Assembly (NCBI GenBank): GCA_951406725.2
Contig: OX597819.1
Location: forward strand, 118,668,001 to 118,732,000
Source of the DNA: Octopus vulgaris
Lineage: Eukaryota
Direction: 5' to 3'
Length of the DNA: 64,000 bases
Every line of letters begins with the position of its first letter. The first letter of the stretch is position 1. A program made the position numbers and the translations under genes. Below the pieces are notes generated by a model, which saw nothing but the letters and a program-made list of their open reading frames with translations, was not told the origin of the DNA and made no database searches. Below are positions 2,737-54,390 of the stretch, piece after piece.

Positions 2737-4405
2737 ACGTTTTCCATTTTTCACGAGTGGGAAAATTAAGAGGCTTCTTTGTTGTTCCTTCATTCAATCG
2801 AACTACTAAAGATTTAATGCTTGGAAAATTTCATTTCTTCCGCTCTTAAGAAAAAGTTTTTGTCCGACGATTTTGAGAGTCAGATGTATTCTAGATCATA
2901 TGATTTATAGCGTTTATGAACAATGTCAGACGGGAGTAATTAACTGTGTAATTCTGTTCTCTGTAGCATATATATAAATGTGTGCAGCGGGTTCAAACTC
3001 TTTTCTGATATGGGTAACTTCCCGGCGTATTTTTTACCAATATACCCGTCATATTTACACTTCGAGATGGGAGTTAAGAACGAATAATTTACGAGAGTTT
3101 TGATGGTCATTTTCGTTAAAAACACCATCAAAACTACAGGCAAAATATGAATTACATCTTGACAACGCGAAAGATATATATATATATATATATATATATA
3201 TATATATATATGTACATACTTATATGTATATGTGTTTGAGTGCGTGTGTATGTGTGTGTACAATATATGCTTAAATAAGTGCCTCTATTTATTTATTTAT
3301 ACAAAATCTGGTGCGTTTCTTTGAGATTTATATTTATCATTATATTCGGATAAATTCTGAGATTCTTCTTTCTAGATATTTCCTAATTCCTTTTCCTCTT
3401 TTACATATATACATATGCATGAAAAGCTGCGAAAGATTTCCTTGCTTGAAATAAACGTAAAGGCTAACGTATTATGGAGAAGCAGCTTGCTATTGGAGCA
3501 TTAATATATTCATTTGTATATATCGAAAGAAGGAAGTTTTGAGGGGAAATTATATGATAAATGTCATCGTTTGAGAAAACAAACGTTGGCGTTGAGAACT
3601 AGATGCGGATGCATATTTTGACAATTTAAGAAAAAACATTTATGAATATAACGACATTTATTGAAGAGCGCTCATTAAATATCTAAATAGCGATTCATTA
3701 CTTTGATGGATGATTAAAGATCTTCTCTGCCGTACATTTTCTGTAGGTATGACTTCCAGTTTTATATAGTTTGAATCATTTGACGGTCGTTTATTCAGTG
3801 TTCATAATTCATCTACTTCAGACACACTCAATTTCGAAAAATAAATGTTAATATGAAATTACAAGGCAAGAATTTAAACCACGCGATAATAAGTGTCATA
3901 TTTAAATACACCGATTCTGAAATAGACACAAAGAGGCACATTGCCCTGCACACGAATACATAGATATATATGTATACACATACGTATATATGCACATTTA
4001 TGTTTATATTGTTTTGGAAGCATATACAATATTCATATATCTATAAACGAGCTGAAACGCATAAACACATATGTATGCGGATAAGATTGCATACCACGCA
4101 TCTACAGACACGCAGAAACATATACGTAGAAATGGCCTCCACAAATTCACTTCAGACTCACAAAGCCTTGGTTAATTTGGCCTATTCTGGATATCAATTA
4201 CCAAAATGCCCCGTAGTTAGACTCCATCCAACGTAACCTGCTTCTAAATTGATCTCTTGAAGCAGTCTTACATATGCTTCACATTTCTTCATATATATAT
4301 ATATATATATATATATATATATATATATATATATATATATATATATATATATGAAAAAACTAGTCAAAAATAGAAAATGCTAAGATAATTTTATAGTGAA
4401 TCTTT

Positions 4406-4443
4406 CAGTACCGGTTTCGGTCATTTTGAGACCTTTTCAACTG
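4406..4443 (-). ncRNA. Type I hammerhead motif (U3-A8 variant), inverted copy
   Basis: Reverse complement of 5087-5124. Confidence 0.7.
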
Positions 4444-5086
4444 TAACGATTAAATGATTAAATTTAGAAAAATTAGAAGAAAAGTTTTTTTAAGGGAATA
4501 TTTCAATAGTAGTGTTCAGATATAAGTGGCATTCTGCCTTTCTCTGACTCCCTTGTTTGCACTTGTGTGTTCGAGGTCGTTGTGAGTTCTTGGTAGGGTA
4601 GGAGAAGCAGAAGGCTGATGTGGAGAGGGGGTGGAGAAATCTGGGAATGCCTTGATGGTCGTAGTTTGAATGGTCAGTGGCGGACAGCAGTCGCATTTCA
4701 ATTCAGGAATTGTTTATGGAATTTGCGTAGGCGTTATACTGAAAGGCATTAGTGACAAGGTTAAGGGGTAGAAGGTGGAGAAGTAGAAGAAGAAGAAGAT
4801 GACGATGTTGATGATGATGATGAAGAAGAAGAAGAAGAAGAAGAAGGAGAAGAAGATGATGATGATGATGGTGGTGATGATGATGACGACGATGATGATG
4901 ATAATGATAATGATGAAGTCTGCTTCTCCTACCCTACCAAGAACTCACAACGACCTCGAACACACAAGTGCAAACAAGGGAGTCAGAGAAAGGCAGAATG
5001 CCACTTATATCTGAACACTACTATAGAAATATTCCCTTAAAAAAACTTTTCTTCTAATTTTTCTAAATTTAATTATTTAATCGTTA

Positions 5087-5124
5087 CAGTTGAAAAGGTC
5101 TCAAAATGACCGAAACCGGTACTG
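5087..5124 (+). ncRNA. Minimal type I hammerhead motif, UUGAAAA core (U3-A8), palindromic stem III
   Basis: CAG-TTGAAAA-GGTC(TCAAAAT)GACC-GAA-ACCGGT-A-CTG; stem I CAG/CTG. Confidence 0.7.
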
Positions 5125-51211: not shown

Positions 51212-51520
51212 AAACATAATACTTTTTTGCGTAATGATATAAAAGAAAGAAAAAAGGCTGTGTAGATATTAGAGCATTTGTAGATAAGAGGCATTACAGC
51301 TGTTTCGAGGTTATTTAATAATTATATCCCTACATCGGAGACGGTGTGAGAGGATGGTTAAGTAATATCTAATTTAGATGGGATACAAAATAGAGATTGA
51401 GGTGGAGGAAAGAAAATAGATGTGAGATATGTAGAGATATTGAAGTTGTAGGTCCATTTTTTAGGCAGAATGTTATATATGTAAGATTCCAATAGTTTGT
51501 GAGTGAAATCCAACAGAATT
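51212..51520 (-). mobile_element. PLE 3' end between (TA)n tracts with decayed HHR (51293-51340)
   Basis: Minus strand CCGATGT-AGGG...CCTC-GAA-ACAGCTGT-A. Confidence 0.55.
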
Positions 51521-51640
51521 TAATATATATATTTATATATATATATATATATATATATATATATATATATATATATATATATATATATATATATATATAT
51601 ATATATATATATATATATATATATATATATATATATATAT

Positions 51641-54390
51641 AGGTTATAAAGTGAGATAGGGGTTGAAAATTCAACCCACCATGGGATAATATATATCCAA
51701 TATACTGCTAGATAGGTACCCAACAAAATTAATACATAGATGTTAAAAATTGTCAAACAATCAGTTCATCTATTGTATTATATGGGTAAAGGTAATAATA
51801 TTACCGTAAATTAATACAACAAAATTAGAGAATGGAGAAACATACTTAAATCAGTAAAACATCAACTATCCGATGATACTCAATCCATACTTTAATACAC
51901 CATTACATATGAGTAAAGGCAATATATAAAATGAAATGAGATATACAGTAATAGTAAAAAGATAAAGAGATATAAGTAAAAATTTCAAATATAATATGCA
52001 AATAAATCAAAAACTGACAGCTGTTTCGGCAGTGAGGGCAGTCATACCTCATTTAACCTATAAGCCATTAAGGCAGGTATAAATGAGGCATTAACAAGGA
52101 TGCCCCACGGCCTCTTCAGAGAATTAAATTAAATTTGTTATAATAGTGAAAAATATTATATAATCATATACATATAAATATAAAAATATAAAAATGTAAA
52201 ATATAAAAACTTATACATCATAATGCTACACTTATATAATATAATACACATTTGTACAAAAAAGGAAGGTAAACAGAACAAAATAAAACAAAATATATAA
52301 CAGTGTATATATTAATATTAATAAGTACCGATATTATACATATTTGGCTAATAGTTTTTTTTATAAAAAAAAAGGCTAACACATATGGAGATGAAAAATA
52401 ATAATTAAAACCATGGTACAGTTCATAAAATTCTAAAGCTATAAAAGTTAATAAAAATTACTATTAATATTAATAATAATAATAATAATAATAATAATAA
52501 TAATAATAATAATAATGATAATAATAATAATAATAATAATAATAATAATAATAATAATAATAATAAAATAATAAAATAGATACAGTTAAGTTAGCACCAA
52601 GTCCATCCTTTCAAGATCGAAATAACTATGAGTTAAGAAATGCTGACCACTAGGTAAAGAAAATTTAGATTAATTCGATTGGCTATTGGTTTGAAATTTA
52701 AATCACAAAAGAAAATTATACGGTTGGTTAGTCAGGGAACGCCAATATTCACACACGCATCTACAGATCAATCGCACATACACACATAGTTATATGTATA
52801 TACATACACTTATACACATACATAATCACAAGCAACAACTAGCACTTAGATAAACAAAAAAGGGAAGCAACTATAACCGTATTTATTCCTTCGTATTTAT
52901 TCCTTCTTATTTATTTTATCACTTTTCATCTTAAGTCTTTATAATATAAAATTTATTTAAAATTTCTGTGATGTTCTCATAAGCGTTTACATTAGTACTT
53001 CCCCTTCTATTTTTTAATGCCTAAACTGGTATATTATGGCACTATATTTATTAAGTTAATAAGTGACTTATATATAATATTTAAATTAATATATATTTTA
53101 TATTTTATATTTTATAATTTAGCGTACTTAAAATCATAACAAACTTACGATAAATCTAACAACCGTATGTTTACTCTGCAACAAACCGGTGTTATAAATT
53201 TTAAGTTACCCATGAAATAATTATCTGACTTAGTAACATACTGATATTTAAAAATTTATTTATATCTAAATTAAATATTTTATGGAATGCATGGATGGTT
53301 CTTTTTTTGTTATTGAGGCACAGTTATAATTTTGAAGGACTAAATGGTAGCATAGTTGCTTCCCTTTTTTTGTTTATCTAAGTGCTAGTTGTTGCTTGTG
53401 ATTATGTATGTGTATAAGTGTATGTATATACATATAACTATGTGTGTATGTGCGATTGATCTGTAGATGCGTGTGTGAATATTGGCGTTCCCTGACTAAC
53501 CAACCGTATAATTTTCTTTTGTGATTTAAATTTCAAACCAATAGCCAATCGAATTAATCTAAATTTTCTTTACCTAGTGGTCAGCATTTCTTAACTCATA
53601 GTTATTTCGATCTTGAAAGGATGGACTTGGTGCTAACTTAACTGTATCTATTTTATTATTTTTTTATTATTATTATTATTATTATTATTATTATTATTAT
53701 TATCATTATTATTATTATTATTATTATTATTAATAATATTAATAGTAATTTTTATTAACTTTTATAGCTTTAGAATTTTATGAACTGTACCATGGTTTTA
53801 ATTATTATTTTTCATCTCCATATGTGTTAGCCTTTTTTTTATAAAAAAAACTATTAGCCAAATATGTATAATATCGGTACTTATTAATATTAATATATAC
53901 ACTGTTATATATTTTGTTTTATTTTGTTCTGTTTACCTTCCTTTTTTGTACAAATGTGTATTATATTATATAAGTGTAGCATTATGATGTATAAGTTTTT
54001 ATATTTTACATTTTTATATTTTTATATTTATATGTATATGATTATATAATATTTTTCACTATTATAACAAATTTAATTTAATTCTCTGAAGAGGCCGTGG
54101 GGCATCCTTGTTAATGCCTCATTTATACCTGCCTTTATGGCTTATAGGTTAAATGAGGTATGACTGCCCTCACTGCCGAAACAGCTGTCAGTTTTTGATT
54201 TATTTGCATATTATATTTGAAATTTTTTACTTATATCTCTTTATCTTTTTACTATTACTGTATATCTCATTTCATTTTATATATTGCCTTTACTCATATG
54301 TAATGGTGTATTAAAGTATGGATTGAGTATCATCGGATAGTTGATGTTTTACTGATTTAAGTATGTTTCTCCATTCTCTAATTTTGTAGT
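51641..54390. mobile_element. 2.75-kb PLE-derived inverted repeat: arms 51816-52874 and 53352-54390, tail 51641-51815, (TA)n both sides
   Basis: Arms of about 1.05 kb, nearly identical apart from (AAT)n length; HHR in each arm; no ORF. Confidence 0.85.
54084..54191 (+). ncRNA. Type I hammerhead motif with 85-nt stem II (inverted copy 52014-52121)
   Basis: CTGAAGA-GGC.GTGGGGCA...ATGCCTCATTTA/TAAATGAGGTAT...TGCCCTCAC.GCC-GAA-ACAGCTGT-C; stem I weak. Confidence 0.7.

Follow-up and report, generated by a model that had tools for sequence, protein, structure and literature searches.

The closest described counterparts of the palindromes analyzed here are insertions of Penelope-like elements (PLEs), whose published layout comprises an inverted, 5'-truncated copy, a tail at one end, a hammerhead ribozyme in the pseudo-long terminal repeat (pLTR) and (TA)n or microsatellite targets (Schostak et al., 2008; Arkhipova et al., 2013; Craig et al., 2021; PMC2377424, PMC3846280, PMC8557442). 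The formation of tandem and inverted PLE insertions is named as open in the text of one study (PMC8557442), and the published explanation of the inverted ones is antisense self-priming (PMC3846280). A purified PLE protein is described as cutting and extending both strands, with two adjacent RNA starts bounding the tail (Frangieh et al., 2024, PMC11167929). Here we describe a 64,000-nt stretch of the Octopus vulgaris genome (assembly GCA_951406725.2, contig OX597819.1, positions 118,668,001 to 118,732,000; hereafter the window) that contains six inverted repeats, E1 to E6 (Table 1). We conclude that these six palindromes are probably 5'-truncated PLE insertions in (TA)n, each consisting of two 3'-end pieces placed head to head and primed from both cut ends on one sense RNA.

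The original prediction of six tail-outward inverted repeats beside (TA)n was confirmed at every position. The arms are 96.6-100% identical over aligned columns: 98.5% over 267 nt in E1, 98.7% over 764 nt in E2, 100% over 61 nt in E3, 97.6% over 210 nt in E4, 96.6% over 119 nt in E5 and 99.3% over 1061 nt in E6. E2 and E3 represent one family (F2) and the remaining arms have no mutual DNA similarity, giving five families (F1, F2, F4, F5 and F6), in agreement with the earlier estimate of at least five unrelated ones. Coding sequence is retained in E2 only, as had also been noted, and consists of a 149-aa GIY-YIG endonuclease end. All six elements are asymmetric, with the tail present on one side only, and the pLTR lies in the partial tandem or inverted arrangement with a tail at one end that is expected of PLEs. 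E4 reaches 44564, beyond its earlier limit of 44268, its tail having been displaced by a run of TA and an inverted host segment of 115 nt. This segment (44317-44431, between the E4 arm and tail) is an inverted duplicate of 40184-40292, 4 kb away, and was possibly templated during insertion.

The same architecture is found across the genome. Among the first 100 matches listed for each family, neighbors less than 10 kb apart comprised 38 tail-outward, 0 inward and 3 same-strand pairs in F2, and 27, 0 and 3, respectively, in F1. Of 48 longer pairs, 46 have the tail on one arm and not on the other, as do 47 of 49 mini-palindromes (93/97 together). In long pairs L023, L024, L025, L027 and L037 the tail is confined to the short arm, which rules out copying of the long arm as the source. 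Arms at the same locus are closer to each other than arms from different loci in all five families. For F2, 0.47 differences were counted within and 2.97 between loci per about 186 nt (15 of 16 pairs, one having been left out). The corresponding values are 0.85 versus 2.7% for F1, 1.2 versus 3.4% for F6, 3.2 versus 5.2% for F4 and 5.4 versus 9.9% for F5, pairs more than 12% different being left out in these four families. The subfamily letter is concordant between arms in 41 of the 42 scorable minis. Published inverted-repeat PLE insertion units have the same layout and also partial tandems; their tails are 30-40 nt, compared with about 27 to 175 nt here, and their texts describe neither the one-base stop hotspot nor the extra G of the F2 minis presented below (Schostak et al., 2008; Arkhipova et al., 2013; Craig et al., 2021). 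The window palindromes are further members of this published insertion type and its expected debris. The dedicated cassette system first envisaged is unnecessary, since the shape follows from insertion.

Motifs and similarity support a PLE origin for four of the five families (F1, F2, F4 and F6), with a predicted reverse transcriptase (RT) and GIY-YIG endonuclease (EN); one is Neptune-like and three are Hydra-like. The suspected PLE affinity is thus borne out for these four via RT-EN open reading frames (ORFs) or their remnants. F2 parents carry 718- and 722-aa ORFs with YRDD plus a GIY-YIG domain at the C terminus. The E2 remnant has 150 scored genomic places at no less than 95% identity, of 19,810 candidates, and a protein database search for its longer relatives returned none at E<=0.001. 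The F2 protein fits the description of the Hydra clade in its RWK-like motif (RWR), DKT, CxCX5C linker, CxxC and CxH flanking E and N, and lack of CCHH; the hammerhead and (TA)n targets are likewise shared, the clade being set by description (Craig et al., 2021, PMC8557442). F4 and F6, which have broken ORFs with 28-48% identity to the F2 protein, are placed in this clade by that similarity and by partial motifs. Their ORFs (L197-L202) contain long asparagine-rich inserts between RT and endonuclease, resembling inserts described for rotifer Penelopes (PMC3846280). The F1 parent is a 785-aa RT-EN ORF (L195/L196; Pfam RVT_1 E=2.9e-08; GIY-YIG E=0.0012, below the cut-off) with the features of Neptune, namely GxKF, DKG, a CX2-5CxxC linker, CCHH in the endonuclease and an optional frameshifted ORF1. 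A 437-aa F1 ORF1 overlaps the RT ORF in another frame (L195:5834-7144, minus strand) and gave no Pfam match. F5 has ends, a tail and a hammerhead consistent with a PLE. Assignment to Naiad, with an N-terminal endonuclease and no canonical hammerhead, was rejected, as the endonuclease is C-terminal in F1, F2, F4 and F6 and a hammerhead is found in all five families. Exact single-pattern genome matches number 536 for F1, 4062 for F2, 114 for F4, 452 for F5 and 376 for F6, with 0 for reversed controls. A sister family has the F2 hammerhead with other upstream sequence, and many of its copies are likewise tail-outward pairs. More hammerhead-bearing palindromic families occur in evenly spaced genome samples (L292:9707-10000) and close to the window, in the flank at 85972-86239 and 159483-160619 (window-relative).

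In the mechanism we propose, both cut DNA ends would prime reverse transcription on the same sense RNA species, and each end would use one of two adjacent RNA start sites. The two complementary DNAs (cDNAs) would meet inward and be joined by microhomology, with the hammerheads riding as passengers of the pLTR. In F2, priming at the 5' copy of the site would run both cDNAs to the cap, producing minis of the E3 type. Cutting and extension of both strands, two RT starts bounding the tail and an AT-rich target match the in vitro behavior of PAc Poseidon; PAc belongs to another clade, and its text does not connect palindromic insertions with the paired starts (Frangieh et al., 2024, PMC11167929).

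E3 is one of 844 F2 loci in which both arms meet no more than 30 nt upstream of the hammerhead cores. The first 49 of these minis provide 98 arms, of which 54 end exactly at the first base of stem I and none extends to the native base that precedes it. No long pair has a short arm ending at the start of stem I (0/15), indicating that the stop is the end of the template and not an independent stall. Among the full arms of minis whose junction exceeds the perfect 8 nt, 15 of 16 have a G before stem I; shorter mini junctions were set aside as possible assembly errors. RTs add C opposite the cap. The 31 non-array copies that keep the ORF start include 9 that begin in stem I, 14 that follow an upstream pLTR and 8 that are shorter or unscored. 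RNA-like contigs show loose ends at 5384 in all three runs (contig depth was not taken as expression). The F2 RNA is likely capped and likely begins at the first base of hammerhead stem I, position 5384 in the left arm of E2; the internal promoter described for Drosophila Penelope agrees with a start inside the F2 pLTR (PMC2377424). A single MITE-like lineage (MITE, miniature inverted-repeat transposable element) behind the minis was rejected, as minis come from both subfamilies (21 and 20 loci). Losses of a single G recur at two fixed places, in 15 of 101 mini arms versus 0 of 56 long arms (L126-L140, L301-L340). Nick-jumping by the RT was rejected as the origin of those at or near the cut site: because a DNA run lists no such deletion at 2%, the losses are likely assembly errors in hairpins.

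The inverted arm could instead arise by self-priming (fold-back) on an antisense template or on cDNA, the tail being left by endonuclease resolution, as proposed in antisense form for rotifer Penelopes (PMC3846280). The near identity of the arms would suit this route, and so would the preference of junctions for sequences complementary to themselves, namely AGCT in stem I and the palindromes of stem III; a 6-nt stem I repeat forms the join in about 30 of 100 rows. However, a tail on the short arm only, in the five long pairs and in 8 of the 9 stem-I-joined loci shown, excludes cDNA fold-back there. The extra G stands at the sense 5' end on both arms in L303, L308, L312 and L328, and, with sense RNA as its template, a PLE protein extends both strands in vitro (PMC11167929). 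We regard fold-back as unlikely.

Several points nevertheless count against priming of both ends on one sense RNA, or against the PLE origin of a family. The arms of mini L126 are discordant, and arm likeness in general could reflect two transcripts of one source locus or later arm-to-arm conversion. The G was also found before stem I in 5 of 6 solo arms, which were drawn from a search that left out the native base. A snap-back of one base on stem I, where the next base is identical, could account for the extra G; some of the extra G's may be borrowed from the other arm, and the short junction variants may be assembly errors. For F5, no ORF was found in 30 loci, where the longest shared upstream sequence is about 900 nt, and Pfam returned no RT or GIY-YIG match for the F2, F4 and F6 proteins, which are identified by motifs.

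The hammerhead core and GAAA...UH are present in both arms of E1, E3, E4 and E6 and in the left arm of E2. No hammerhead motif was found in either arm of E5, which is truncated downstream of the family F5 hammerhead; 5 of 37 arms carry that motif, some 140-150 nt upstream of the search anchor, and a sixth arm retains its 3' half only. All five families thus have a predicted type I hammerhead with a palindromic stem III in the pLTR. Five palindromes had been credited with hammerheads in both arms, one copy being disrupted. The motif positions stand and the broken copy is the right one of E2, but stem I is also broken in both E3 copies as assembled, probably through assembly errors. An Rfam scan gave no hammerhead among the matches listed (150 of 250), only microsatellite-driven microRNA matches.

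These motifs had suggested a source of self-cleaved double-stranded RNA (dsRNA) or a bidirectional transcript cutter. In such a dispersed RNA-processing system, read-through RNA would fold and the downstream hammerhead would cut, giving self-cleaved dsRNA or truncated host transcripts. Seven of the ten motif copies in the window are able to form all three stems, family RNA appears edited, and the predicted cut site coincides with the end of some arms (101 matches; ultra-short palindromes 81 versus 13 in the control). Many of these ends are point changes or microhomology joins, and they are at most candidate traces of in vivo cleavage. In folding models, forcing the hammerhead inside the read-through hairpin would cost 73 (E1), 78 (mini L128) and 120 (E4) kcal/mol, compared with 3.5-11 kcal/mol in a single arm, and the antisense arm is transcribed first. 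PLE hammerheads are reported to cleave weakly alone (PMC4209133, PMC11167929), and that of PAc to need protein, with no reads ending at the cut site (PMC11167929). Many palindromes, such as E5, are truncated below the ribozyme, and the families, which are young and present in many copies, show no sign of selection at individual loci. A working system of this kind is very improbable, and neither function is upheld.

The suggestion that the dsRNA serves as an ADAR substrate fared better. Contigs from other individuals, with RNA status guessed, were compared at the family level, no read being tied to the window loci. Of the 21 differences listed for the F2 arm, 8 are enriched in RNA with a DNA share of <0.1%, and each of these is A>G or T>C. 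The two A's in the CTAG of stem III are changed in all three studies. In the F1 arm, 12 of 13 RNA-enriched differences are A>G or T>C, with the drawback that a single run (X14) supplied them, in two contigs of low depth; X5 and X7 gave none. Changes of this type, nearly absent from DNA, support the substrate role at the family level, and read-through arms would zip into dsRNA that is likely edited from adenosine to inosine (A-to-I), with the ribozyme not folded. Lizard Penelope and the palindromic Harbinger of frogs are hyper-edited, self-folding repeats that act as ADAR substrates, as proposed here (Porath et al., 2017, PMC5625713). Editing of PLE palindromes is supported as an expected outcome given the massive editing of lizard Penelope, in a repeat analysis from which octopus was left out (PMC5625713). 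The text of an octopus repeat annotation paper names active PLE families and makes no mention of palindromes, hammerheads or editing (PMC13282606).

Outside the window, three arrays (L241, L242 and L243) consist of F2 deletion units with one hammerhead each, F2-type ends and a tail at one end. Each has a private junction common to both arms and absent from the other fetched loci, which are a subset of the matches. Eight loci with two or three hammerheads 154-547 nt apart are candidate precursors. The arrays suggest cleavage, circularization and rolling-circle copying by the PLE RT from both ends; a tandem source since lost, or several rounds of template jumping, would also fit. Two arrays contain periodic variants, which suggest that blocks were duplicated later or that templates were longer. 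Non-long terminal repeat (non-LTR) retrozymes are described as 170-400-nt tandem type I hammerhead units, as in the three F2 arrays (Cervera & de la Pena, 2020, PMC7229834; Li et al., 2026, bioRxiv 10.64898/2026.07.22.740005). In contrast to these, the F2 array units derive from an active PLE by simple deletion and are set head to head with PLE ends. The same texts propose, but do not show, that PLEs mobilize animal retrozymes. Identification of E1-E6 themselves as non-LTR retrozymes was rejected, as they are not tandem and such units are absent from all six. A literature search, with subscription papers and supplements outside its scope, found no account of PLE minis bounded by a cap or of retrozyme arrays arranged head to head.

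Least credible of all is an origin of the palindromes as DNA transposons of MITE type, bounded by terminal inverted repeats, as their inverted ends and TA flanks might suggest, or as long-read assembly artefacts, as the recurrent single-G losses, which resemble hairpin sequencing errors, might: arms of variable length with a one-sided tail and RT parents, running into RT/endonuclease ORFs, do not fit the fixed terminal inverted repeats and uniform length of MITEs, and an independent DNA run and RNA-like runs give the same junction and a contig with both arms.

A k-mer scan that recovers all six window elements called 6 palindromes in the 64-kb window, 7 in 200 kb of flanks and 12 in a 400-kb spaced sample (40 evenly spaced 10-kb stretches). 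Twelve spaced-sample elements were inspected by eye (8 of the 12 flagged and 4 not flagged), and 10 looked PLE-like. The genome density comes to about one per 30-40 kb, against which 6 in the window has a Poisson P of 0.008-0.018, and the proposed frequency of one cassette per 10 kb describes a local high only. The hammerhead descriptor of the scan missed E3 and found the motif in 0 of 12 flagged spaced-sample elements, and no ribozyme count was taken from it.

Other features of the window include a tail-outward inverted pair at 24219-24616 (78 nt, 91%) with a 3' end like that of a long interspersed nuclear element (LINE) and (TGA)n tails, outside TA repeats. LINE reverse transcriptase fragments lie at 41677-43270 and 34347-34829, both on the minus strand (Pfam RVT_1 E=1.5e-31 for 42077-43270). 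A 481-aa, ORF1-like open frame at 26447-27892 (minus) has a CCHC-type knuckle and gave no Pfam match. In a search for host genes, 0 of 130 non-repeat ORFs in 264 kb gave a Pfam match.

Table 1. Coordinates of the palindromic insertions, their tails and hammerhead motifs in the window, and of three F2 arrays elsewhere in the genome.
Feature	Position	Strand	Description
E1 palindromic insertion	4353..5211	.	Family F1 (Neptune-like PLE 3' end); arms 4353-4611 and 4919-5185
E1 tail	about 5186-5211		Right side only
E1 mirror hammerhead	core 4440	minus	Predicted cut after 4409
E1 right hammerhead	5087..5124	+	U3-A8 core variant; core 5090; predicted cut after 5121
E2 5'-truncated Hydra-like PLE	5248..9739	-	Family F2; inverted short arm 8953-9739
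F2 tail in E2	5248..5316	-	69 nt; left arm only; equals 5' UTR (untranslated region) preceding the ORF in tandem copies
E2 left hammerhead, intact	5334..5384	-	Core 5378; predicted cut after 5340; stem I 5' strand begins 5384
GIY-YIG endonuclease C-terminal remnant in E2	8546..8975	-	97% identity to 718-aa RT-EN ORF elsewhere in the genome
E2 right hammerhead, broken	9657..9720	+	31-nt duplication; GAAA region lost
E3 mini-palindrome	20604..20799	.	Family F2; tail 20604-20672, left only; arms join at 20733-20738
E3 hammerhead cores	20732 (minus), 20739 (plus)		Arm junction 20733-20738 directly upstream of both
E4 palindromic insertion	43851..44268	.	Family F4 (Hydra-like)
E4 hammerheads	cores 43985 (minus), 44134 (plus)		Long stem II
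E4 tail	44430..44564	+	Separated from arm by (TA)24 and inverted copy of 40184-40292
E5 palindromic insertion	47451..47768	.	Family F5; tail about 47690-47768, right only
E6 palindromic insertion	51641..54390	.	Family F6 (Hydra-like); tail 51641-51815, left only
E6 hammerheads	cores 52119 (minus), 54086 (plus)		Stem I of 2 bp only
L243 array	C2:64628577-64631996		Head-to-head 277-nt hammerhead units, 6 + 8 copies; 10/12 full units identical
L241 array	C5:37481668-37488922		Head-to-head 333-nt hammerhead units, 20 + 3-4 copies
L242 array	C8:91475363-91483184		Head-to-head 271-nt hammerhead units, 5 + 26 copies

The value of the palindromes lies in their record of the PLE mechanism, chiefly in family F2. 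This family is young (intact ORFs, 844 start-to-start minis, three arrays) and yields exact predictions of the RNA start, the two priming sites and the circle junctions. If the density holds, extrapolation gives about 70,000-90,000 palindromes per 2.8 Gb, and the share of non-coding A-to-I editing that falls on PLE palindromes becomes a direct, testable question. We tentatively propose, as a possibility somewhat short of an even case, that the PLE life cycle is written into the octopus genome. Every insertion would become a palindrome through a dimeric RT that uses both ends of the target as primers on one capped sense RNA; deletion copies with two hammerheads would self-cleave and circularize, and the RT would roll around them from both ends to leave retrozyme arrays. 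Palindromes in the tens of thousands would then be a main dsRNA source of octopus hyper-editing.

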